DNA of 64,000 nt from a virus. The stretch is taken from IMG/VR virus record IMGVR_UViG_3300046387_001332, one strand, 5' to 3'. This document shows positions 3,702 to 48,336 of this stretch, in pieces. Every line of letters begins with the position of its first letter. The first letter of the stretch is position 1. The notes beneath the pieces are model-generated. The model worked only from the letters and a program-made list of their open reading frames with translations. It searched no databases and was not told the origin of the DNA. The position numbers and the translations under genes are program-made.

Positions 3702-5810
3702 ATGGCAACACTACAAAACAGATCAGCATTTAATTTAAGAGGGTGTCAACCAATTGGTGGTCAGGCACTACAAACTACATCAAGTTCATGTGATGCTGAT
3801 GTTCTTGAGAATATATATGAACAAGTAAAGCAAGCAGCCAAAGACTACAGATGGGAGTCTGAAAGAACTACATTACGAGCAAAACTTACATACAATTGTC
3901 CTAAAGTTGGTGATGCAGTAAGATGGGACCCTAAAATAAATGGATTTAATTTAGCATACGCAATGTATGATACTAACAATCCATCCGACCAAGAGCACCT
4001 AATAGAAGTTGTTGGTATCGTAGAAAGTGTTAGTGTAACCTGCGATGGTTCGGGTAGTGAAATAAACGCAAACGAAACCGAAACAAATGCAGTAATAGTA
4101 ACTTCCGGGAAAGTATCATTTGATCAACTTAAATCAGAATCATATCTTGAAAGTGGGAAAGTTTACTATTTGTGGGACAGAAACCATCCTGCTCATGTTG
4201 CACTTGGTAATAATGTTTCATCTGATGTACATGAACCGATAATCAGTAAACCACTTTTTGTTTCAACAGGAACAAACACCGGAATGGTTTTAAATTATCG
4301 TCCCATGACAGGTTCACCAACGGGTGGTAGAGCACAAACAGAAAAGTATGAAATTGATATAGTAAAAACGGCTGCCGAAGGTGGTGGTTGGTTCATAACA
4401 ATAAAAAACATAGGTGGAATTGCATCAAGACACCCACTAATTGCCCAGATTGACTATAACAGAAGAACCGGACCAAGAGAGTCACTGAATGGTCAAGAGG
4501 TTCATACTATGTTCAAAAACATAGGAATTCTTCATAGCAAGGCAGTTGCCGATCAACATCCAACGGACACACTTGAATCAGAAACATCTTTTTATGTTAC
4601 AAAAAATTCTGAGTTTGGTATTAGTGGAGGAATTTCGGATAATATAATTGATGGACTAAACGGAGTCGGTGAAATTACCGTAACACTTAAGTCAAATACG
4701 GCAAATACCCAAAGTTCATCGTTACTAAAATCATTAATACCATTTCAAACAAGTCCAACTGCTCGTAGATTTCCAAACATCAAAGTACGTGGTGAGTGTG
4801 CATATGCGAGTCAACGAGACAACACAGAATCAGAAGACGAAAACAATTTATACATTGACAACAACGACACGGATATTCCAGACTTGGTTGTTTCTCCATC
4901 TGGTGCATCAACTGCGTATAGTTTTGAAGGTGTAATCTTTGAAATTACACTTGAAAAAGATGCTCAAAATGAAGAAATTTATGTGCCAATGGCAGATGAA
5001 ATGTATTTTAAAATAGATAGTCCAAGTTTAGACGAACCAATTATTAACAAATTTAAACTAACCGCAGAGCAGACTGCCGTAGAAATTATACCAGTCAACG
5101 AACTAGGTGAGGGTATAACAAAAGAAAATGTAACTCTGTCAGTAATAACACAGGACGGAGAAGAACTAAACATTAAACATTGGGGAAGAACCATACAACA
5201 ATCTTCGTATATATGTGATAGTGAAAGATGTTGTGATGAAGATAAAGTTACTGTTGATGTTAATGATGGTCTCACAAATGCTTCTGCAAAACTTGAGGAT
5301 TTATTAGTGGCAGACGGAGATAGTAAATTTATGACAACCGGTGTTAACGGAAAAACAATAGACACAACACCAAGATTACATACACTTGATCCTGAAAAAA
5401 CAATAGACTTACCATCAGGAACACCATCGAATGGATTAAGGTGTACATTTAAAAACGCACGTGAAAACACTATATTCTGTTATCCAAAGAATGTATTATC
5501 GGGAACACAACCCTCATTTATGGCAATTTACTTTAACGAAGCAAGACAAGGTACACTAGGCATAAGAAACGCAAAGGATTACGATCCACGATATATAGCA
5601 ATAGAAATAGGTGGTCAAGATACACTTAATGGTGCAGTTGTTACCGTTACATTAAATTCCGGACAAGAAAATGAGTGTTGCATAGACTTTAAGTTTGATG
5701 GAAGTGCAAACGGAACACACTATACATTCAGAGAACTATATCAAGCAGGATTAATTGTAAAAAGATCAAGCAACTCTGACATATTATTTGGAATAGAGGA
5801 TGGGGTGTAA
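3702..5810 (+). CDS. Putative virion structural protein
   Basis: Shares the VGDAV...EVVGIV...GKVYYL...SKPL...NYR domain with 1549..3303; SD GAGGA. Confidence 0.55.
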   Translation: MATLQNRSAFNLRGCQPIGGQALQTTSSSCDADVLENIYEQVKQAAKDYRWESERTTLRAKLTYNCPKVGDAVRWDPKINGFNLAYAMYDTNNPSDQEHLIEVVGIVESVSVTCDGSGSEINANETETNAVIVTSGKVSFDQLKSESYLESGKVYYLWDRNHPAHVALGNNVSSDVHEPIISKPLFVSTGTNTGMVLNYRPMTGSPTGGRAQTEKYEIDIVKTAAEGGGWFITIKNIGGIASRHPLIAQIDYNRRTGPRESLNGQEVHTMFKNIGILHSKAVADQHPTDTLESETSFYVTKNSEFGISGGISDNIIDGLNGVGEITVTLKSNTANTQSSSLLKSLIPFQTSPTARRFPNIKVRGECAYASQRDNTESEDENNLYIDNNDTDIPDLVVSPSGASTAYSFEGVIFEITLEKDAQNEEIYVPMADEMYFKIDSPSLDEPIINKFKLTAEQTAVEIIPVNELGEGITKENVTLSVITQDGEELNIKHWGRTIQQSSYICDSERCCDEDKVTVDVNDGLTNASAKLEDLLVADGDSKFMTTGVNGKTIDTTPRLHTLDPEKTIDLPSGTPSNGLRCTFKNARENTIFCYPKNVLSGTQPSFMAIYFNEARQGTLGIRNAKDYDPRYIAIEIGGQDTLNGAVVTVTLNSGQENECCIDFKFDGSANGTHYTFRELYQAGLIVKRSSNSDILFGIEDGV

Positions 5811-7180
5811 TGAATAATGATAACGTCACGATTATTGTCCCAATTTATAGACTAATATCCAACAGATTTAATAACTTTTGTTATTTAATCAAAAAATTGA
5901 ATAAACTAGACTGCGATGTGGTGGTTGTTGAACAAGAAAGTGACAAAACTCTGGTAATAGAGCAATACTTATTAAACTACACAAACATTACTCATTTAAT
6001 TTACAAAAGTAATTCCAACAAATTTAATAAATCAAAAATCATAAACTATGCAACCAAGGATGTTTATACCGAATATATATGGATTGTAGACGGAGATTTT
6101 TATACTGATTTTAATTTTGTCTTACAAAGTATTGATACAACAACAGACTTTATACGTCCATTTTCAGAAGTAATCTTTCTCGACAAAGAAGAAACATATC
6201 GTCTTCATTCGAGTGACATTGCACAATTAAACAACGAAACTGAATATAAATCTAATTCGCAAAATGGAAAATTTTCATTTATTGTTAGAAATTCATCTTT
6301 TGTTGATGCCGGTGGAATGAACGAAGATTTTGAGGGGTGGGGGTTTCAAGATTTAGATTTCGTAGAGAACAGACTTAAACCAGGAGTAAGTTTTGGCACT
6401 GTCTCGCAGACGGCATATCATATGTACCACGCACCTGCTTCACGTGAAAATGTAAATATCAATCGTCAACTTTACACAAACTACAATCGGGCTGCGATAA
6501 AACAACTTATATCAAAAAAAATAAAAGAATATAATGGTAAAACAGAAGTTGTATTAAATAAAAAAAGTTTATACCGTGAAAAACATCAAAAAGATGGTAC
6601 TGAACTTGAGACTTATCATCAAGAAACTGAAAAGAAAACACGAATAATAAAAAAATGGAATGAACCAAAGTTTGGTGTAGTATATTCATCAGATTCAAGG
6701 GTATTCTATCCTGGACTTGATGTAATAACCGTAAGAGACTCAAATTCTCATAAATTAAAAAATGTAAATGGTACATTTTCACGTGTTAAAACTGAAAATC
6801 ATTTTTTATATTACTATTACGAATATATTTGTCACATATACGAAGTATTGCCTAATGACAGAACACTGTTATTTGCAAATGATACTTTTTGTAGTAACTA
6901 TAGTGACATAAACGATTTAAATAGTAAGATAAAAAAAGTAAAGAATGGTGAAATACTAGATGTAGAGGAACAAGGTTATACATCTCTATATAAAGAGTTT
7001 AAGCACTCATTGCTCGATAGACCTTTTTCTAAAACAGGATGCTTTTTGGTAAATTCTAATAAAATCTTAAATAAAAAGTTTGATTATTATTATTCACTTT
7101 TAATGCAAATGAAAAACTGGAAACGAGAAGATTTCCAAGCACAGATAAGTGAGTTTAAAAAAGTTTTGTTTGACAAGTAG
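5810..7180 (+). CDS. GT-A fold glycosyltransferase (GT2/GT7C-like) with DUF3431-like C-terminal domain
   Basis: TIIVPIY, VVVVEQ, FNKSKIIN, DGD (DxD), GGMNEDFEGWGFQDLDF, YHMYH; C-terminal YICHIYEVLP...FLVNSNKILNKKFDYY. Confidence 0.8.
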   Translation: MNNDNVTIIVPIYRLISNRFNNFCYLIKKLNKLDCDVVVVEQESDKTLVIEQYLLNYTNITHLIYKSNSNKFNKSKIINYATKDVYTEYIWIVDGDFYTDFNFVLQSIDTTTDFIRPFSEVIFLDKEETYRLHSSDIAQLNNETEYKSNSQNGKFSFIVRNSSFVDAGGMNEDFEGWGFQDLDFVENRLKPGVSFGTVSQTAYHMYHAPASRENVNINRQLYTNYNRAAIKQLISKKIKEYNGKTEVVLNKKSLYREKHQKDGTELETYHQETEKKTRIIKKWNEPKFGVVYSSDSRVFYPGLDVITVRDSNSHKLKNVNGTFSRVKTENHFLYYYYEYICHIYEVLPNDRTLLFANDTFCSNYSDINDLNSKIKKVKNGEILDVEEQGYTSLYKEFKHSLLDRPFSKTGCFLVNSNKILNKKFDYYYSLLMQMKNWKREDFQAQISEFKKVLFDK

Positions 7181-38713: not shown

Positions 38714-39642
38714 TGGGCATCTCTGAACAAAAACTTCTCAATCTTCTGCAAAAAGTATTAGGAGCTGGAAAAATCGTCTCTAAAGACGAGGCTATGTTTT
38801 TGTGTCCATTTTCCCATCATAGAAAACCCAAACTTGCGATTAATTTATCCACACAAAGATGGCAAAGTTGGATTGATACAAATGCAAAGGGAAGATCAAT
38901 CTATGGTTTATTCAAAAAGATGAATGTTGCTCCGCAATATCTTACAGAACTTTCAAGAATTGTAAAGATACCCAAAAGTACGCAACAAAGTGAAGAAGAA
39001 CAAATTAAAATTCATCTTCCATACGAATTTACCTCATTGCGGTATGATACTGAAAAAACGAGATCATCAAAGGCTGCGTTTAATTATCTAAGACAAAGAA
39101 ACATATTTTCTTATGATATAGAAAGATATAATATTGGATATTGCGAAAGTGGTGATTATGCGAATAGAATCATAGTACCATCATATGATTGCGACAATAA
39201 TTTAAATTATTTTATAGCAAGAGATTTTACCGGAACTGCGTATTTACGATACAAAAATCCACCAGTCAGTAAAGATGTTGTGGTGTTTGAGAATCAAATT
39301 GATTTCTCCGAACCACTTATTTTTTGTGAAGGTGTATTTGATGCTATGGCAATTCGTCGAAATGCAATTCCACTATTGGGGAAGAATATTCCAAGTAAAC
39401 TAAAAACAAAATTAGTTGAACATGGAGTTTCTGAAATATGCATTGTTCTTGATAACGATGCATTTAAAAACGCATTACAAATTTCCGAAACATTGATGAA
39501 CGAGAATGTTCGTGTCAAATTAGTAAAAATGGGAAATGACGATGCGGCGGACATTGGGTTTAATAAAATAATTCATAAAATTAGAAATGCAGAACTTCTT
39601 GATTTTAGTGAATTGATGAAGCAAAAGTTATGCATGAACTAA
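38713..39642 (+). CDS. DnaG-type (TOPRIM) DNA primase
   Basis: CPF..H, YLRQR, RIIVP, FIAR, YKNP, CEGVFDA, LDNDA; GTG overlapping the upstream TAG preferred to the track start at 38695. Confidence 0.88.
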   Translation: MGISEQKLLNLLQKVLGAGKIVSKDEAMFLCPFSHHRKPKLAINLSTQRWQSWIDTNAKGRSIYGLFKKMNVAPQYLTELSRIVKIPKSTQQSEEEQIKIHLPYEFTSLRYDTEKTRSSKAAFNYLRQRNIFSYDIERYNIGYCESGDYANRIIVPSYDCDNNLNYFIARDFTGTAYLRYKNPPVSKDVVVFENQIDFSEPLIFCEGVFDAMAIRRNAIPLLGKNIPSKLKTKLVEHGVSEICIVLDNDAFKNALQISETLMNENVRVKLVKMGNDDAADIGFNKIIHKIRNAELLDFSELMKQKLCMN

Positions 39643-40334
39643 AAACAAATTTAAAGAACGTTGAAAAAGTATATCATCTCGCAGACATTCATATAAGAAA
39701 CGTAAAAAGACACAACGAATATTCATTGGTATTTGAAAACTTTTACAAACAAGTAAAAGAAGATAATCTTGATAACGCAATTATTTTTATTGGTGGAGAC
39801 ATTGCTCATGCCAAAACAGAAATGAGTCCAGAGTTGATTCATCAAATATCTTCATTTTTAAGAGAGTGTTCTAAACTTCATCCAACGATTGTTATTGCTG
39901 GTAACCACGATTGTAATTTAAACAATCCTGATCGTCTTGATGTATTGTCTCCTATTATGGACATGATGGATGATGACAATTTATTTTATTTAAAAGATAG
40001 TGGTGCATATAAAATAGGTGATGTCGCAATTGGTGTATTTGGTATTTTTGATGATCCCAACGAATATGTACGTGGAACTGATATAACAGATAAATCTATT
40101 AATACAAAGATTGCAGTTTATCATGGTGCAGTAAAAAGAAGCAGAACTGATGTTGGTTATGTTGTTATGGGAGGTGACATTGAGTTGCCTATGTTCAATG
40201 GATATGATATAGTCATGTTGGGTGATATCCACAAATATCAAACACTACAAGAATACCAAACAGAGCATAGATTTATACCCGAATCTAAAGTTGATGAATA
40301 TAAACTAGAAGGATGGGAACTTGCAGATGTCTAA
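39630..40334 (+). CDS. Mre11/SbcD/gp47-like nuclease, N-terminal fragment
   Basis: Metallophosphoesterase motifs DIH, GGD, GNHD, YHG and LGDIH; lacks the following YxGS segment, which is in 41249..43849. Confidence 0.88.
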   Translation: MHELKTNLKNVEKVYHLADIHIRNVKRHNEYSLVFENFYKQVKEDNLDNAIIFIGGDIAHAKTEMSPELIHQISSFLRECSKLHPTIVIAGNHDCNLNNPDRLDVLSPIMDMMDDDNLFYLKDSGAYKIGDVAIGVFGIFDDPNEYVRGTDITDKSINTKIAVYHGAVKRSRTDVGYVVMGGDIELPMFNGYDIVMLGDIHKYQTLQEYQTEHRFIPESKVDEYKLEGWELADV

Positions 40335-41259
40335 ACGATTTTTAATAAAGTGCAACCACATTCACATTGGTGATATTTTATTTGCAAGCAGTGTTGCAAA
40401 AAAATTAAATGAAGAACAAGGACCGTGTTCTGTCCATTTCTCAGTAAATTACTTGCAACCGATTGAGTTGCTCAATAATAATCCTTACATTGATAAAGTC
40501 TTTTTTAATGAAAGTTTCGGAACATACGATGAAGTTTTCAATTTAATCGGAGACACAGACACACTAAATCCATATGAATCTGCGGTATCTCAATTTCAAA
40601 GAATGTGTAATATAAAAAACTTCGATGATACCTTTGAAATTTATACAAACCCTTCTTTAGATTATTCAATTAGTGAAAGTTTTCGTGAACTTGTTAAAAT
40701 AGGAGATTGGCCAAACTCATTAATTAAAGTAGGTTATCAGTGTGACTGGGATAAAAAAAGTTTTTTATTTACCGAAGAACAATACGAACGTGCTGAACAC
40801 GGAGAAGACGGAACAGGATATGGTGATGGTTCTCGTAATGTATACGATATTATCAATTGTCTAGAAATTAATTCTAATATTATGTTATTTGCGTTGGGTC
40901 TTGATGATAAAATTTCAAAAAGATATCCTGCTATCAATTCAACTAGCAAATTTACTTTTACTGCAAGTTTAATTAAGAATTGTGATTTTGTTATAGGAGC
41001 AGAGGGGTGTCTAACAAACATATCATCTGCGTTGGGTGTGAAAACAATAATTACCACAGATTACATACACCAAATGTTTGGACCCAAAGGAATTAAATGG
41101 CAACAAGAAGGTGGTGATTTAAATAACCTAGAATGTCGTAAACCTTTTTTAGGACCTTGTAATTATTTTCCGAAAGCAGATCACATCCACCTCAATCCAT
41201 ATCTCACCGATCAACAAGTTGGAGAAGAAATTTTAAAAGTAGTTACACATGGAAGATAA
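40327..41259 (+). CDS. GT9-like (GT-B fold) glycosyltransferase inserted within the Mre11-Rad50 gene
   Basis: HIGDILFASSVAKKL, LLNNNPYIDKV, TASLIKNCDFVIGAEGCLTNISSALGVKTI. Confidence 0.75.
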   Translation: MSKRFLIKCNHIHIGDILFASSVAKKLNEEQGPCSVHFSVNYLQPIELLNNNPYIDKVFFNESFGTYDEVFNLIGDTDTLNPYESAVSQFQRMCNIKNFDDTFEIYTNPSLDYSISESFRELVKIGDWPNSLIKVGYQCDWDKKSFLFTEEQYERAEHGEDGTGYGDGSRNVYDIINCLEINSNIMLFALGLDDKISKRYPAINSTSKFTFTASLIKNCDFVIGAEGCLTNISSALGVKTIITTDYIHQMFGPKGIKWQQEGGDLNNLECRKPFLGPCNYFPKADHIHLNPYLTDQQVGEEILKVVTHGR

Positions 41260-43849
41260 AGAGAGTTACGTAAAAATAAAAAGACACAACGGTCAGAAAC
41301 CAGTTGTAGTGTATTCGGGAAGCATGATTCAACAAAATCATGGTGAAAAACCATTTGGTCATGGTTATGTTTTGTGGGACCTGAAATCACGTACACATAA
41401 GCACACAGAAGTATTCAATGAATATGGATATTATACCATTGAAGTAAGAGATGGAAAGTGTGTAAGTGACTTGGATAAACTTCCCACGAAAGCAAGATTG
41501 CGGGTAAAAGTATTTAACACAACTGCAACTGAAACTAAAGAAATAATTGCAGAGATACGAAAGAAAACAAGCATAACTGACTTAAATGTCACACGGTGCG
41601 ATGCAATATCTGAAGCAAAAAAGTTTGATCGTGACAATAAGTTTGATTTTGGTGACATATCACTTGTACAAGTACAAAATGACTTAATAGAAGATTATCT
41701 TCGCAGAAATTTTGTTGTTGATGATGACCAAGTAAAAACTGCTCTTGATATTAATAAAGAAATCAACGATAAACTTGTAGTAAAAGAAGTTCTTCGTAAT
41801 TGCATCTGGAAACCAAAGAAGTTTGAATTCTCAAATATGTTTAGTTACGGTGATGGTAACATTGTAGATTTTTCAAATATGAAAAGTGTCATGGGATTGT
41901 TTGCTTCAAATGCAAGTGGAAAAAGCAGTGTAATGAGTGCATTGAGTTTTTGTTTGTTTGATAAATGTGATCGTGCTTTTAAGGCATCCCATGTTTTAAA
42001 CACACAAACTGATTCATTTTATTGTAAACTAAATTTTGAAATAGGTGGAGTAGATTATTTTATTGACCGTCAAGCAACAACAAAGAAGAACGGTGACGTA
42101 ACTGTCGTGGTAGACTTCTGGAAGCATGATATCGATGGTAACACAATATCGTTAAACGGAGAACAGAGGGCTGGGACAAATGCTATAATTCGTGATCATG
42201 TGGGTTCGTATGATGACTTTGTTTTGACTACATTAAGTTTGCAAAATAATAATGCAATTTTTATAGATAAAAGTCAAAGTGAACGAAAAGATTTACTTGC
42301 ACAATTTATGGGCATAGATACATTTGATCAATTACACTCTACTGCTTCCGAAGACATTAAAGAAATAAATGCTTTACTTAAAAGATTTAATCGTGACGAT
42401 TTTGATGAAACTCTTGCAGATGTAAAAGAAAAACTTGATAGAATAAATGAAGAGTATAATCAACAAGATAGTAAGACTAATGTAGCATTACTTGAACAGA
42501 AAAGATTAAATAAAGAATTGGCTGATAAAAATTCATTATTTAAAAATTGTTCGTTTGATGAAACCGCAGTTGATATTGATAAATTAGAATTTAATAAAAA
42601 TAATTTAAAAGAAAGACTTGAAATAGCAAAAGATAATCGTTCGGATGAATCCACAAGAAAGAAAAGTTTAACATTAGAAAAGAAAAATTGCTCACAACAA
42701 ATATCCGAACTAAAAGGTACAGAAGAAAAGTATATAAGTGTATTAAAAGTTCGTGAAGATATTACAAAAGTAGAAAAAGATTTGGCCGTACTGAGAACAT
42801 CAGTTAATGCTAAGTTAGATAAATTAAAACATTATGATAGTCATCAATATGACCCAAAGTGTAAGTTTTGTGTTAACAATTCTAAAAATCTTATTGAAAG
42901 TGCAGAGCAAACTAAAACTGAACTTGATAAAGACAAAGCAGCGGCGGACGAGTTGGTAAAACAAAAAACTATTTTTAGTGATATACTTGAAGATAATAAA
43001 GATGTAGAATCCAATTATGAATTGCTAAAAGATTTAAATAATAAATCTAATCAACTTGTGTTTGAAATAAACGAAGCAGATTCTAAAGTTCTTGCTTTGT
43101 CTAGTATGATTGAATCTCTTGAAAAAGATATTGTTTTAAATGATAAAAATATTAAAGAATATTATGAGTGCAAAGACATAATTGAGTTTAATAAAAATAT
43201 ACAAAAAGAAGTTGGTGAATTAAATTTAAAATTAAATTCTGTAAATAAAATTGCAAATGATGAAAGTGAAAAACTTCAAACACTTTTCGGTGAAGTTAAA
43301 ATTGTAGAAAAAGAGCATGATGATGTAATCTCTTCAATTGAAGAAGCAAAAAGTTATGAAAGAAAAAAACGAGGATACGAGTTGTATCTCGATGCTGTCA
43401 AACGAGATGGTATATCATACGAACTTATTTCCAAAACTATTCCAAGTATTGAAAGTGAAGTAAATAATATACTTTCTCAGATTGTTGATTTTGGTATGAA
43501 TCTTGAAATGGACGGAAAACATATTTACTCAAAAATAACCTACGAGGATCGGCATTGGCCATTAGAGATGTGTAGTGGTATGGAACGATTCATAAGCAGT
43601 ATTGCTATGCGTGTAGCACTTATTAATGTAAGTAGTCTTCCTCGTTCTAATTTCCTTGTTATTGACGAGGGGTGGGGTACATTAGACGGAGACAATATTA
43701 GTAGTGTATTTAACTTATTTACTTATCTAAAAGGTCAGTTTGAGTTTATCGTGGTCATTAGTCACTTGGATGTTATGCGAGATATGGTGGATGAAATTGT
43801 AGAAATTCAAAGAGAAGGTTCATTTAGTAAGATAAATTACGGAGCATAA
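41249..43849 (+). CDS. Mre11 C-terminal part fused to Rad50/SbcC/gp46-like ATPase
   Basis: VVYSGSMIQQNHGE...GHGYVLWD, then Walker A NASGKSS, coiled coils, CKFC hook, SGME signature, VIDEGWGTLD and ISH. Confidence 0.9.
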   Translation: MEDKESYVKIKRHNGQKPVVVYSGSMIQQNHGEKPFGHGYVLWDLKSRTHKHTEVFNEYGYYTIEVRDGKCVSDLDKLPTKARLRVKVFNTTATETKEIIAEIRKKTSITDLNVTRCDAISEAKKFDRDNKFDFGDISLVQVQNDLIEDYLRRNFVVDDDQVKTALDINKEINDKLVVKEVLRNCIWKPKKFEFSNMFSYGDGNIVDFSNMKSVMGLFASNASGKSSVMSALSFCLFDKCDRAFKASHVLNTQTDSFYCKLNFEIGGVDYFIDRQATTKKNGDVTVVVDFWKHDIDGNTISLNGEQRAGTNAIIRDHVGSYDDFVLTTLSLQNNNAIFIDKSQSERKDLLAQFMGIDTFDQLHSTASEDIKEINALLKRFNRDDFDETLADVKEKLDRINEEYNQQDSKTNVALLEQKRLNKELADKNSLFKNCSFDETAVDIDKLEFNKNNLKERLEIAKDNRSDESTRKKSLTLEKKNCSQQISELKGTEEKYISVLKVREDITKVEKDLAVLRTSVNAKLDKLKHYDSHQYDPKCKFCVNNSKNLIESAEQTKTELDKDKAAADELVKQKTIFSDILEDNKDVESNYELLKDLNNKSNQLVFEINEADSKVLALSSMIESLEKDIVLNDKNIKEYYECKDIIEFNKNIQKEVGELNLKLNSVNKIANDESEKLQTLFGEVKIVEKEHDDVISSIEEAKSYERKKRGYELYLDAVKRDGISYELISKTIPSIESEVNNILSQIVDFGMNLEMDGKHIYSKITYEDRHWPLEMCSGMERFISSIAMRVALINVSSLPRSNFLVIDEGWGTLDGDNISSVFNLFTYLKGQFEFIVVISHLDVMRDMVDEIVEIQREGSFSKINYGA

Positions 43850-43892: not shown

Positions 43893-44936
43893 ATGGAAAA
43901 TTCCGAAAAAAATCAAAAAGTCCAAGAAACCCTGATTAAAGCAGGATTGCGTAAAGGATACTTTACACTTGTAGAGGGTGTGTATGATCCTGGTATTTTA
44001 AAAGCAGTATTTCTAGCAGGAGGTCCTGGTTCGGGTAAATCTGCTACGGTTGATACATTATTCAATTTTCCACCAGATGCGGCTAATTTATCACCAAGTG
44101 GATTGAAGATTGTTAATAGTGATCCTGCATTTGAGATATTACTTAAAAAAGCAGGATATGATCTGAATCTATCTAAAATGGATGATGAAACATTTGCCAA
44201 AGTAACAAGTGACGATCCAAATAGTATTCGTTCCCGTGCGAAGAAAATTATGCTTAAACAATTTGAGTTATTTAAAGATGGTCGTTTGGGTATTATCGTA
44301 GATGGAACTGGTGATAATTATAACAAAATATCAAAGCAAAAGAAAGAACTTGAAAAACTTGGATACGATTGTTATATGGTATTTGTAAATACAACATTAG
44401 ATGTGGCACAACAAAGAAACGCAATGCGTAAAAGAAAACTTCCACGAAAAATAGTAAAAGATATTTGGACAGATGTACAAAAAAATCTTGGTAAGTTTCA
44501 AGGTTTGTTCAAAGCAAATTTCGTTATAGTAGACAATTCAGAAGATACTCGCAGTAAAACAAAACCTGGTAGATTAGATTTAGTTCCACGGTTAATGAAA
44601 GAAGTTGCAAGATTTATATCCAAACCAATTAAAAATCCAATTGGAAAGAAATGGATTAAAATGATGATGGCACATGATAAAATGAGTAAAAGTGGTGATA
44701 AACGAAATCGTGTTACAGAAGAACTTGATTTAGTAAAGATGGAAGATGTTGTTCTTCCTATGGATTTAGAGAGACACTTAAGTCGTTCTATTCACGTAAT
44801 TAAAAAATTTAATTTAAATGAAAGAAAGAATTTAGCAGTATTAACACGATTAGTGGAGAGTTTACAACTTAGCAGAAATCAGTTAGTAAAGTATTTTCAT
44901 AAAATCCGTACCATGAAATTCAAAGGAGAAGATTGA
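43893..44936 (+). CDS. P-loop kinase (AAA_33/zeta-toxin-like)
   Basis: FLAGGPGSGKS, VNSD, IIVDGTG, RNAMRKR lid. Confidence 0.75.
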   Translation: MENSEKNQKVQETLIKAGLRKGYFTLVEGVYDPGILKAVFLAGGPGSGKSATVDTLFNFPPDAANLSPSGLKIVNSDPAFEILLKKAGYDLNLSKMDDETFAKVTSDDPNSIRSRAKKIMLKQFELFKDGRLGIIVDGTGDNYNKISKQKKELEKLGYDCYMVFVNTTLDVAQQRNAMRKRKLPRKIVKDIWTDVQKNLGKFQGLFKANFVIVDNSEDTRSKTKPGRLDLVPRLMKEVARFISKPIKNPIGKKWIKMMMAHDKMSKSGDKRNRVTEELDLVKMEDVVLPMDLERHLSRSIHVIKKFNLNERKNLAVLTRLVESLQLSRNQLVKYFHKIRTMKFKGED

Positions 44937-44937
44937 T

Positions 44938-45288
44938 ATGTTTGATGTTATTTTTGACGAACTAATCAAAGAAGATAAACTAGGAGAAACTTGGAGAATA
45001 GAACTTGCTCCAAATCATTCTCGTTATAGTTTTTCGTCAAAAAAGTCTGGAAATGAAAATTGGGCAAAATCACTTGCTATGAAGTTATTGAAACAAGATA
45101 AAGATGAATACAAGTTTATTGGAGTATTTAGTGAGGGTGAAACTGACGATGGACCAATTGTTGATGGTTATATTTTTCATTGTACAGAAGAGTACTTTAA
45201 AAATGTCCCTCACTTGCATCGTGATAAAAGAAAAGCAATTAAACAACATCTTAAAACAAATAAAATAATTGAATATTTTGAGGATTAA
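44938..45288 (+). CDS. Hypothetical protein
   Basis: Tightly packed ORF. Confidence 0.6.
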   Translation: MFDVIFDELIKEDKLGETWRIELAPNHSRYSFSSKKSGNENWAKSLAMKLLKQDKDEYKFIGVFSEGETDDGPIVDGYIFHCTEEYFKNVPHLHRDKRKAIKQHLKTNKIIEYFED

Positions 45289-45289
45289 T

Positions 45290-45817
45290 ATGAGCATTAA
45301 AGAATATAACAGATATAAAGATGATCCTTTTTGGATGAAATCAAAATATGATGGAGTGTCGGGTGAACAAAGATTACCTGTTCAAAGAAGATTACGCAAG
45401 GGTGGGATTAAGTTTAAAAAAGGTGATGAGATTTTATATTACCCGAGGGGTAAAGTGATTATGGTAGGAAAAGAAGCAGAGCAAGCATGGAGAGATTTCC
45501 AATCAGCTGCTTCTGATGAAGATTTTTATATGTCGCAATACGAGGAGTCAATTAATATGGAAAAAACAAATGAAATTAAATTAACAAGTCCAGAGTACAA
45601 AAAAGCAATTAACTTTATGTCTGATATGCATTCTAGTATTCTTAAAGCAAAAGATAAAGTTATAAGTTTTCTAAGAAGAAAAGGATATGACGATATGGCA
45701 GATGAACTTGACGGAATGTCTAAGATTGAGTTCAATAAATTTGTTCAACGTAAAGTGTATGAAGAAAAGTTAAGAAAAGAAATAAGAAATATTCTTACTG
45801 AGATTTTAAACAAATAG
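45290..45817 (+). CDS. Hypothetical protein with C-terminal KLRKEIRNILTEIL helix
   Basis: Tightly packed ORF; ATG 1 nt after the upstream stop. Confidence 0.6.
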   Translation: MSIKEYNRYKDDPFWMKSKYDGVSGEQRLPVQRRLRKGGIKFKKGDEILYYPRGKVIMVGKEAEQAWRDFQSAASDEDFYMSQYEESINMEKTNEIKLTSPEYKKAINFMSDMHSSILKAKDKVISFLRRKGYDDMADELDGMSKIEFNKFVQRKVYEEKLRKEIRNILTEILNK

Positions 45818-48336
45818 TGATCACAAAAAATACAGATATTTTAACCAAAAAACTTACTGATTATTTGGTTGAAGAAACTTTAGAGGAGGACTCTAAAGTA
45901 AAAACTATTCTTGGAATTTATCCTGGACGGTTTCAACCTGCTGGTATACACCACTATAAAACATACAAGCATTTAAAAAAGAAGTTTAGCAAATCTTTTG
46001 TTGCAACCAGTAATAAAACTAATACAACAGATAGTCCATTAAATTTCAAAGAGAAAAAAATGGTATGGTTAAAGCATGGAGTTAAAGATGTTGTTGCTGT
46101 TAAGAATCCATATGTATGCGATGAAATTACTAAACGTTACGACGAAGATACTACCGCAGTGGTTTTCATGTTTGGTGAAAAAGATGCAGGACGATTAAAA
46201 ACAACAAAGGCAGATGGTTCACCTGCTTATTACCAACCATACGAAGAAAATAAAAGAAACTTAAAAGGTTTTAAGCAACATGGTTATTTCATAGTTGCTC
46301 CTCATGTGAGTATTAAGGTGCTTGGCAAAGAAGTAAGTGGTACACGGATACGAGATTTACTTGGTTCTCCTAAACACGATGAAATGACAAAAATTCAAGC
46401 ATTTGAGGAATTGTTTGGTTGGTATGATGAAAAGATATTCAAATATTTGACAAAAAAATTCGGAACATTGTTTGAGAATAGAGAAATTTATGAAAGTTTC
46501 ATACATGAGTATCCAAACTTAGAAGGTTATATACATAATTTACCAAATGTATGTAATGAAATAAGTTCTGTGTTTGCACATGGAAAATCATTAGTAGATG
46601 ACGGACCTAGTATTTTTTATCCAGGAAAAACATACGAGAAAAATACATCCAATTATGCCGAGCAACTTGGGTACGAATTAATTGATCACATTGCTGGTAA
46701 AAACAATGAAGGAAGAAACACAAGTTACCGAGAGTGGGGAAACTACGCAGGACCAGTACCCGCAGTTAGTTTTTACACATCGGGTGTTTCAGATGAACAA
46801 ACTCCCAACAACCAAGTTGACACAGAATCTACGAGAACTGCACATGGCCAGTGGGAAAGTTTTATATCTCAGGTGGCAGAAACTGCTGGATATAAACTTG
46901 TAGACTTTATTGGTTCTGAAAAATCTATTCGTAAAAAAGATGAACAAGGTGACGAAGATTTGAAATCAGGTAATACTATTGACACCGATAAAGCAGAGGA
47001 AGGTGACAAAATAGACCAAGGTGTAAAGGGTCAAGTAGTAAACGAAAATTTATTAACAGAAGGAGGTGCGGCTGGACACATGAGTCATCCCTTTGATGAT
47101 CGTGAGTTAACATTTGGTGATTTAAAAGAAATGATTCGTAGATCACTTGCAGGTGAATTAAATGTTGAAAAAGAAGTTACTGAAAAACTTGATGGACAAA
47201 ACTTAATGTTTTCTTGGAAAGATGGTCAGTTGGTGGCCGCAAGAAATCAAGGTCATCTAAAAAACGCAGGTGCGGCTGCTCCTAATGTAAAAGAATTTTC
47301 AAGTATATTTGCTGATCGTCCTGATAATATTCGTGACGCATTTGTAGGTGCAGTTGAAGATTTAGAAACTGCTATATCTGGTCTTACAGATGCACAAAAG
47401 AATAAAGTATTTCGTGAAGGTGAACGTTTTATGAATATAGAGGTAATGACACCTGCGACACAAAATGTTATTCCTCAGAATGTAGATATGTTAGTATTCC
47501 ACGGAACACAAGCATATGATTCCGCAGGAAAAGCAGTATCAGAAGATTCCGAGGGAAACGATATAACAGGTGAACTTAAAGACTCTGCAAGAATGCTTAA
47601 AGGTATGTTGAAACAAATAAACGCAGATGTTCAAAAACGATATTCATTGAACGCACCAATTGTGGTGGAACTTCCTAAAAGTAAAACATTTGGAGATTCA
47701 TATGCAAAGTATTCTGCTAAAATAGATAAACTTAAAAACAAATTTAGATTAAAAGATAACGATAAAGTAATGAAGTATCACGATTCTTGGTGGAGAAACT
47801 TGCTTGATAAACAACAAACAAAAAATAAAGAGATATTTCCCTCGAATGTATACGAAGCACTCGTTGGTCGTTGGGCATATAATGATAAGTCTAACAAAAT
47901 CACTACAATTAAAAAAGAATTATCTGATCATCCAAAACTACTTGCTTGGGTTACTAAATTTGAAAAAGAAGATATTACAAAACAATTTGAAGAAAATATG
48001 TGGCCATTTCAATTCATCTTTTTGAAATTGGGTGCGGAAGTATTAAAAAATGTAAAAGGATTCGTTGCGGCTGGTGGAAGTGATGATATTGCAAAAGCAC
48101 TTGATTCTCACGTTAAAACACTTGAAGGCAAGAAGATAAGTTCGGTGGAATCACCTGATAAGTTTAAGAAAGACATGGAGAAACTAAATAAGAATCTTGC
48201 TCGTCTTAATTCTATTGGTGGAAGCAATGCAATTGCACCAACAGAAGGTGTAGTATTTCAATACAAAGGTGGAACATATAAACTCACAGGTACATTTGCT
48301 CCTATAAATCAAATTATGGGTATAATGAGGTTTTAA
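45817..48336 (+). CDS. Fusion of HIGH-superfamily nucleotidyltransferase and KxDG ligase-like (DUF6267-like) domain
   Basis: IYPGRFQP, PLNFKEK, GEKDAGRL, SGTRIR; second domain GGAAGHMSHPFD, TEKLDGQN, EGVVF, KLTG. Confidence 0.7.
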   Translation: MITKNTDILTKKLTDYLVEETLEEDSKVKTILGIYPGRFQPAGIHHYKTYKHLKKKFSKSFVATSNKTNTTDSPLNFKEKKMVWLKHGVKDVVAVKNPYVCDEITKRYDEDTTAVVFMFGEKDAGRLKTTKADGSPAYYQPYEENKRNLKGFKQHGYFIVAPHVSIKVLGKEVSGTRIRDLLGSPKHDEMTKIQAFEELFGWYDEKIFKYLTKKFGTLFENREIYESFIHEYPNLEGYIHNLPNVCNEISSVFAHGKSLVDDGPSIFYPGKTYEKNTSNYAEQLGYELIDHIAGKNNEGRNTSYREWGNYAGPVPAVSFYTSGVSDEQTPNNQVDTESTRTAHGQWESFISQVAETAGYKLVDFIGSEKSIRKKDEQGDEDLKSGNTIDTDKAEEGDKIDQGVKGQVVNENLLTEGGAAGHMSHPFDDRELTFGDLKEMIRRSLAGELNVEKEVTEKLDGQNLMFSWKDGQLVAARNQGHLKNAGAAAPNVKEFSSIFADRPDNIRDAFVGAVEDLETAISGLTDAQKNKVFREGERFMNIEVMTPATQNVIPQNVDMLVFHGTQAYDSAGKAVSEDSEGNDITGELKDSARMLKGMLKQINADVQKRYSLNAPIVVELPKSKTFGDSYAKYSAKIDKLKNKFRLKDNDKVMKYHDSWWRNLLDKQQTKNKEIFPSNVYEALVGRWAYNDKSNKITTIKKELSDHPKLLAWVTKFEKEDITKQFEENMWPFQFIFLKLGAEVLKNVKGFVAAGGSDDIAKALDSHVKTLEGKKISSVESPDKFKKDMEKLNKNLARLNSIGGSNAIAPTEGVVFQYKGGTYKLTGTFAPINQIMGIMRF

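Follow-up and report, generated by a model that had tools for sequence, protein, structure and literature searches.

"Fractured genes" were described by Dassa et al. 2009 (Nucleic Acids Res 37:2560, PMC2677866), who also reported an intein-less SbcD-like locus from the Lake Gatun GOS data. In Aeromonas phage Aeh1, the insertion-derived tails of the NrdA protein are essential for assembly and activity, as reported by Crona et al. 2011 (PMC3045599). A comparable locus is described here from the 64,000 nt of IMG/VR virus record IMGVR_UViG_3300046387_001332 (this whole stretch is called the window, and all positions are counted along it). In the window, the gene for a fused Mre11-Rad50 protein is present as two open reading frames, ORF1 and ORF3, and the intact gene of a glycosyltransferase-like protein, ORF2, lies between them. 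This is probably a fused mre11-rad50 gene that has been fractured (a case of genes in pieces) in a marine tailed phage; its halves would reassemble, and the cargo of its slot would have been swapped to a gene resembling those of glycosyltransferase family 9 (GT9).

A fused gene in two pieces

The ORF coordinates, motifs, gene overlaps and intact GT9-like gene between the halves had been proposed in an initial annotation made from the sequence alone, and ORF, profile and motif checks reproduced all of them (Table 1). The five metal-binding motifs of the Mre11/SbcD family (DxH, GDxxH, GNH[DE], H and GxxH-type) are all present in ORF1, as DIH at residue 19, GGDIAH at 55, GNHD at 91, YHG at 164 and GDIH at 198, and the protein ends 33 residues past the last of these. 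ORF1 matches Pfam Metallophos (E 2e-8, above the cut-off) and the SbcD-like family phrog_100 (3e-17). The ATG of ORF2 at 40327 falls within GATGTCTAA. Following its short head, ORF3 reads KPVVVYSGSMIQQNHGE...GHGYVLWD and then continues into Rad50, with a NASGKS P-loop near residue 220, a CKFC zinc hook at 538 (about 42860-42871), an SGM signature at 776 and a FLVIDE Walker B motif at 802. SbcC/Rad50 profile matches begin at about residue 188 (phrog_77, 8e-41; TIGR00618, 2e-17; SMC_N; SbcC_Walker_B), those from NCBIfam and Pfam falling under their curated cut-offs.

An exhaustive phmmer search with ORF1 found 3193 relatives, from which the best 150 and a few others (160 in all) were sampled. 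About 140 of these 160 are single fused proteins of ~1040-1070 aa with Metallophos and AAA_23/SMC_N matches. The gene boundary had initially been assumed to lie, as a rule, between a nuclease gene and an ATPase gene; the usual state in this family is instead one fused gene. In typical unsplit relatives the GDIH motif is followed by 10-24 residues and then by Y.GS.IQQNHGE. The initial annotation asked whether the sequences QTLQEY and KPVVVYSGS, which ORF2 separates in the window, are contiguous in relatives, and they are: QEY and KP..Y.GS stand about five residues apart in unsplit proteins, and in P0203 exactly five residues separate QEY from KP. Microcystis phage Mel-JY01 (PP395634, 1066 aa) and the huge phage LR756501 (1202 aa) are likewise contiguous and unsplit, with a short linker. 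ORF1 and ORF3 are adjacent reading frames that align in order with the halves of what is one gene in relatives, as in a fractured gene, which upholds the proposal that an ancestral fused gene was interrupted within its nuclease domain. A single ancestral gene, for a protein of about 1050-1100 aa, would now yield two polypeptides.

The three-ORF order is shared by 26 of the 27 IMG/VR loci recovered, all on independent contigs, and the 27th (L029) is a short fragment with part of ORF1 only. Across the 26 viral contigs, identity is 79-99% for ORF1, 50-98% for ORF2 and 81-97% for ORF3. The 11-nt overlap of ORF2 and ORF3 is kept in 13 of 13 diverged loci and the 8-nt overlap of ORF1 and ORF2 in 12 of them, the thirteenth having GTG at that position; ORF3 is matched from residue 1 onward by dozens of metagenome protein clusters, 866-872 aa in length. 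The ratio of nonsynonymous to synonymous differences (pN/pS, as pooled pairwise values) is 0.16 for the ORF1 core and 0.12 for the nuclease and capping part of ORF3. At the break it is 0.20 for the ORF1 tail and 0.32 for the ORF3 head, and elsewhere 0.17 for the Rad50 part and 0.37 for ORF2. Because pN/pS is low everywhere, every piece, the peptides at the break included, is a constrained protein; all parts of the locus are under purifying selection. The arrangement is neither chance nor an assembly artefact.

These data bear directly on the reading that the locus makes no functional Mre11-Rad50 and is an assembly chimera or a pseudogene in decay. A split inside a catalytic domain would normally inactivate an enzyme, which gives that reading its appeal. 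However, both halves are intact in the 26 contigs and in the dozens of protein clusters, with pN/pS of 0.12-0.20 at near-saturated synonymous divergence, and all catalytic motifs are retained. A chimeric assembly, which had been raised initially as one way in which the interruption might prove false, is contradicted by the independent contigs and also by contigs from other sequencing runs that span both junctions with 0-2 mismatches. The pseudogene or chimera reading is barely credible and was rejected.

Three further observations concern the sequences collected above. The best NCBIfam match of ORF1 (residues 16-102, 39630-39935) is to the N-terminus of the 994-aa "DS8 anti-phage protein" model NF053861 (E 4e-8, far under the cut-off), a hint that bacterial defence proteins share the architecture of a phosphoesterase fused to a long ATPase. 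The order primase, Metallophos, ORF2-like, AAA_23 also occurs near one end of a 577-kb long-read contig (L035:4303-6619), in which the genes are in short pieces, probably through indel errors; this contig may be a jumbo phage, a host genome or a chimera. The contigs of L008 (161 kb) and L015 (152 kb) are labelled "provirus" in IMG/VR, and both look like lytic-type myovirus genomes.

Table 1. Features of the split mre11-rad50 locus in the window
Feature	Positions	Strand	Description
ORF1	39630..40334	+	234 aa; N-terminal fragment of the Mre11/SbcD nuclease domain, motifs I-V
ORF1 tail	40254..40331	+	residues 209-234, 26 aa, net charge -4; modelled as beta1-alpha-beta2 of the split mini-domain
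ORF1 stop/ORF2 start overlap	40327..40334	+	8 nt, ATGTCTAA
ORF2	40327..41259	+	310 aa passenger; GT9-fold (GT-B) glycosyltransferase-like protein
ORF3 start/ORF2 stop overlap	41249..41259	+	11 nt, ATGGAAGATAA; ORF2 stop at 41257-41259
ORF3	41249..43849	+	866 aa; rest of nuclease, capping domain and complete Rad50
ORF3 head	41249..41299	+	residues 1-17, net charge +2; modelled as beta3 of the split mini-domain
Mre11 core remainder, capping domain and linker	41300..41809	+	ORF3 residues 18-187; strands from KPVVVYSGS, GHGYVLWD; aligns with contiguous fused relatives
Rad50/SbcC part	41810..43849	+	N-lobe ATPase, coiled coil, zinc hook, signature, Walker B

The break lies in a small domain

The initial annotation was right that the break is inside the nuclease domain; it does not fall in the bare core, however, but in a small additional domain that the annotation overlooked. 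Neither the ORF1 tail, which most unsplit relatives lack, nor the ORF3 head occurs in short-linker proteins; the two peptides correspond by homology to an in-frame insert of 35-50 aa that some unsplit relatives have. Seven fused relatives carry this mini-domain in frame (P0225, P0279, P0304, P0302, P0278 and others); the five named are 1085-1101 aa long, and P0279 is present on two independent contigs with a matching gene neighbourhood. Extra peptides of this kind on both sides of the break, 26 and 17 aa here, together with a passenger gene whose 3' end overlaps the downstream start, by 11 nt, are a further feature of fractured genes.

The AlphaFold model of unsplit P0225 (residues 1-422) has a mean predicted local distance difference test score (pLDDT) of 86, and Foldseek matches it to Mre11/SbcD structures (3qg5, 1ii7, 4lty and 7dog, E 1e-12 to 1e-9, with 2e-12 for 3qg5). 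The nuclease sandwich and the capping domain are present in this model; in the window the same fold appears only when ORF1 and ORF3(1-187) are combined, in a two-chain model. The insert of P0225 is modelled as a strand (215-221), a helix (223-231), a second strand (235-239), a loop (240-246) and a third strand (247-253). The ORF1 tail maps to the first strand, the helix and the second strand, and the ORF3 head to the last strand. The loop is the lowest-pLDDT part of the insert, and the break of the window maps there. On these models, a lineage-specific mini-domain of about 40 aa, with beta-alpha-beta-beta topology, follows the motif-V strand and precedes the next core strand, and the break falls in its beta2-beta3 loop. 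A split small domain at the break is supported.

The modelled beta-alpha-beta-beta topology would be compatible with a DUF4177-like domain. An hmmscan of seven natural unsplit modules and three tails gave no Pfam family at E up to 10, DUF4177 included, and an Atlas feature search with the mini-domain returned no usable match. A PDB profile search with five mini-domains from unsplit relatives gave a 22-residue match, possibly by chance, to the 65-aa "co-purified peptide" chain 9qef_F (E 0.004), and otherwise noise.

The gene between the halves

ORF2 had been called GT9-like, and this holds by fold in Foldseek and VIA-align comparisons of its predicted structure, not by sequence profile. The model of ORF2 (pLDDT 91.5) has the two-domain GT-B fold. 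Its first Foldseek match is 3tov (E 6e-10), followed by TibC, WaaC and WaaF. In VIA-align the Z score is 17.9 for 3tov (root-mean-square deviation 3.6 over 245 residues), 15-16.4 for WaaC, WaaF and TibC, and at most 10 for other GT-B enzymes; the model aligns with the GT9 heptosyltransferases as a group over 229-245 residues with Z 15-18. These enzymes also have an N-terminal G-D loop like that of ORF2. They differ in sequence, with an identity of only 11-14%, and ORF2 is shorter than the matched chains. A profile scan of ORF2 gave no match to Pfam Glyco_transf_9 or to any other Pfam family. Weak matches to DUF354 (E 0.0013) and TIGR02201 (E 0.027) both fall far under their cut-offs, and a PDB profile search reached 3tov at E 0.62. 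No nuclease domain was found in ORF2 by profile scans, Foldseek or structural alignment.

More than 250 homologues of ORF2 were found, and those that are about 40% identical sit in glycan-biosynthesis clusters with GT4, GT2, GT7, DegT and epimerase genes. One of them (286 aa) lies on a 73-kb freshwater contig (L031:150-10861), in a cluster that contains GT4, GT2, GT7, FabH-like, hexapeptide transferase, PhyH, DegT and epimerase genes. A second glycosyltransferase-like gene occurs in the window at 5810-7177 (phrog_1721 galactosyl transferase, E 7e-9), and the phage therefore carries more than one sugar transferase.

Contents of the slot in other lineages

It had been suggested that other passenger genes might occupy the same site, and endonuclease-like genes do so in three lineages. 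In LR756508 (L001) the slot holds the gene of a 305-aa CxxC-rich zinc-finger protein with a TnsA-like nuclease domain (Pfam 6e-6). In L047 the slot gene encodes a zinc ribbon, NUMOD3 and a PvuRts1I-like/DUF559 (Vsr-like) nuclease, and in L036 a zinc ribbon and NUMOD3, the gene being cut by the contig end. A free-standing endonuclease gene between the gene parts, the remaining feature of fractured genes, is present in these three and not in the window, where the slot of the whole clade holds the GT9-fold gene. Other splits have no passenger: in L040 and L046 the slot is empty and the stop and start codons overlap (TAATG-type), in L045 there is a 16-nt gap, and in L038 a 173-nt spacer. Since elsewhere the slot holds endonuclease-like genes or nothing, the glycosyltransferase is one cargo of a recurrent fracture site and not the agent that split the gene.

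The L047 locus (L047:4501-9606; also L048) has an intein directly after the motif III GNHD in its N-fragment, with Intein_splicing and LAGLIDADG matches. A SegE-like GIY-YIG gene lies two genes upstream, so that the locus carries several mobile elements, the slot endonuclease among them.

In a tree of the N-terminal nuclease part (207 columns), the window clade is sister to the unsplit, insert-bearing P0225 (Shimodaira-Hasegawa-like approximate likelihood ratio test, SH-aLRT, 90), and the N-fragment of L040 is sister to the unsplit P0279 (SH-aLRT 97). The insert-bearing forms are scattered on the tree. A single clade of all of them was rejected by the approximately unbiased (AU) test (p 0.0015); the tree had already been inspected once when this group was chosen, and the inserts of two members, P0239 and P0295, are of doubtful homology. 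Horizontal spread of the module along with a homing endonuclease would account for the scatter.

The passenger-less splits also invite a history without an endonuclease, in which point mutations created a stop and a restart codon in the flexible loop of the mini-domain and the joint then served as a landing pad for morons, the GT9-like gene and, separately, the endonuclease genes. The bare TAATG-type overlaps of L040 and L046 and the short gaps of L045 and L038 are what such a beginning could look like, the sister relationship of the L040 fragment to unsplit P0279 agrees with it, and no endonuclease remnant is seen next to ORF2. However, homologous zinc-ribbon/NUMOD3 endonuclease-like genes occur at exactly this site in the separate lineages L036 and L047, as in the published GOS locus, which is what site-specific homing predicts. 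The rejection of a single insert-bearing clade also fits horizontal spread better than repeated point mutations at one loop. The point-mutation history is, on balance, rather unlikely. Most probably, an endonuclease cassette first broke the gene, and its cargo was later exchanged for the glycosyltransferase gene; the slot holds free-standing homing-endonuclease genes in other lineages and a GT9-fold gene in the window clade.

Predicted reassembly and expression of the halves

The initial annotation held that the gene was kept functional as two polypeptides. Purifying selection on both halves bears this out at the level of sequence, and the joining of the halves is predicted by a two-chain structural model. 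The model of ORF1 with ORF3(1-187) has an interface score (ipSAE, the interaction prediction score from aligned errors) of 0.89, a mark attained by 58 of 80 solved complexes and by 2 of 110 mismatched pairs; the best of three controls scored 0.00. Three runs share at least 95% of contacts, and the partner pLDDT is at least 77. In the core, ORF3 strand 39-46 contacts ORF1 strand 11-21, and ORF3 19-22 contacts ORF1 194-197, which is the pairing that completion of the phosphoesterase sandwich would need. At the break, ORF3 residues 4-27 touch the ORF1 tail (209-234); taking the neighbouring part of ORF1 as well, ORF3 residues 4 and 6-27 touch residues 189-234. On the model, the halves would come together without covalent joining into one nuclease domain: the core strands of ORF3 would complete the ORF1 sandwich, and the acidic tail and basic head would re-form the mini-domain as a clasp.

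A terminator-like site on the + strand was not found inside 39630-43849, and promoter-like sites (43, compared with 35.9 +/- 6.1 in shuffled sequence) are not in excess. Co-transcription and coupled translation would fit the conserved overlaps and the lack of an internal terminator-like site; ORF2 is probably transcribed with its neighbours and translated by coupling through the 8-nt and 11-nt overlaps. Five RNA runs contain only 7-25% of the sampled words. One 151-nt contig from an RNA library spans the ORF1/ORF2 junction unspliced, and it may derive from DNA; the RNA-run contigs at the locus give no evidence on transcripts, their starts or their ends.

Introns and inteins often interrupt phage genes, and the L047 relative has an intein elsewhere in its ORF1, so that a rejoining of the halves into a single Mre11-Rad50 protein by a group I or II intron, a split intein or translational bypass deserves consideration. 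A joint of 40231 to 41324, found in two runs, might be taken for a splice product. However, 46 foreign letters lie between its short sides (18-24 nt), and the joint comes from unsplit relatives, not from splicing. An Rfam scan of 39400-41700 gave no intron family even at E up to 10, only chance-level matches, and ORF2 takes up the entire gap, overlapping the gene on each side. Conservation of the tail and head is at the protein level, and both are homologous to an in-frame segment of unsplit relatives. Intein junctions are also missing: the N-junction lacks Cys/Ser, the C-junction lacks a conserved HN plus Cys/Ser/Thr, the tail and head have no Cys, and after HN comes G, P, A or K, relatives having LN or WN in its place. 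Both peptides fall far short of the length of intein halves (about 100 and 35 aa), and neither ORF1 nor ORF3 has a Pfam intein match. A bypass of 930 nt across an intact, selected gene is implausible, and it was rejected. Rejoining by any of these routes is very improbable, in keeping with the initial statement that no intron or intein is involved. A fractured gene that yields two polypeptides remains the preferred explanation.

Several points weigh against this explanation. Both chains of the modelled complex come from one known fold with many solved structures; its pass therefore weighs less, indicates likeness and is no proof of binding, and it may partly reproduce solved Mre11 structures. 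Association of the two proteins and nuclease activity are predictions. Neither the window nor three related contigs of 134-161 kb yielded a second Metallophos/Mre11 gene, and these contigs are 65-80% complete, which leaves room for another Mre11 elsewhere in the genome. Contigs from RNA libraries cover only parts of the locus and could be DNA carry-over. There is no endonuclease remnant in or beside ORF2, and the exchange of cargo is deduced from relatives only. The tree, from 207 columns, is poorly resolved, and fused forms with an insert, like splits without a passenger, could be ancestral instead of derived. The anatomy of the locus, the comparative series, the selection on its parts and the folds of ORF2 and of the unsplit relative are observed; for reassembly, coupling and the order of events we infer what best accounts for them.

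Neighbouring genes

The + strand of the window, which is part of a tailed-phage genome, encodes the terminase large subunit, portal protein, major head protein and a baseplate wedge subunit. The split gene is followed downstream (43893-48336) by the genes of a 347-aa Zeta-toxin/AAA_33-like P-loop kinase and of a protein of 839 aa. Unsplit P0279 (L050:4387-7242) has a 951-aa CTP_transf_like protein at the corresponding downstream position. Given this correspondence, synteny around mre11-rad50 is conserved, with a primase upstream and a nucleotidyltransferase-like gene downstream.

Comparison with known systems

The interruption of the gene is real, but the initial annotation missed the endonuclease context of the slot and overstated its novelty. 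Gene fracture as a phenomenon is already published, both for an SbcD-like gene, by Dassa et al. (PMC2677866), and for nrdA/mobE of phage Aeh1 with its tails (PMC3045599). What is new here is a cargo with a GT9 fold, not a nuclease, that is kept across a diverged clade; an explicit series of unsplit, insert-bearing, empty and occupied states; and the placement of the break, on structural models, in the loop of a mini-domain. A literature search for natural Mre11-Rad50 fusions found only tagged constructs.

Since one protein family links the unsplit, mini-domain-bearing, empty, endonuclease and metabolic-gene states, the life cycle of a gene fracture can be traced within it. On the history preferred here, a fracture slot can outlast the selfish element and hold an ordinary gene over long divergence, as the 50-98% identity of ORF2 across the clade illustrates. 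The predicted split mini-domain clasp bears on how proteins tolerate fission and might serve as a small non-covalent split tag; the understanding of Mre11-Rad50 itself is unchanged by the locus. A more far-reaching idea, doubtful at best, is that the sites at which homing endonucleases fracture genes are reused as lasting slots in which useful cargo is expressed by translational coupling. The GT9-like gene would then have replaced an endonuclease and be under selection in an essential recombination operon; its product could work with Mre11-Rad50, for example by glycosylating phage DNA, a virion protein or a replisome protein in step with recombination-dependent replication.

The phages Mel-JY01, LR756501 and LR756508 have members of the same protein family as the window locus, 27-40% identical and likewise located after a DnaG-like primase. 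The first two are unsplit, whereas LR756508 is split at the same loop as the window but with the zinc-finger/TnsA-like nuclease gene in the slot.

The SbcD-like locus of Dassa et al. (PMC2677866) is a close counterpart of the window locus. Two adjacent ORFs form the N and C halves without an intein, the break adds 25 C-terminal and 9 N-terminal residues that unsplit proteins lack, and the intervening gene overlaps at its 3' end with the start of the ORF downstream; such loci are mainly found in phage. The main difference is the gene between the halves, a Vsr-like putative homing endonuclease there and a GT9-fold gene in the window. That paper, compared here by its description, presents one fragmentary locus and does not report a Rad50 fusion, relatives with an in-frame insert or passenger-less splits.

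The nrdA-a/mobE/nrdA-b genes of phage Aeh1 (PMC3045599) are like the window locus in that the gene of an essential enzyme is fractured inside a domain, with short C- and N-terminal tails and without RNA or protein splicing. They differ in the host gene, which is that of ribonucleotide reductase, and in the passenger, an HNH endonuclease gene. The role of the tails is experimental in Aeh1 and modelled here; by analogy, the proposed clasp of the ORF1 tail and ORF3 head resembles the mobE-derived tails of the NrdA-a/NrdA-b pair.

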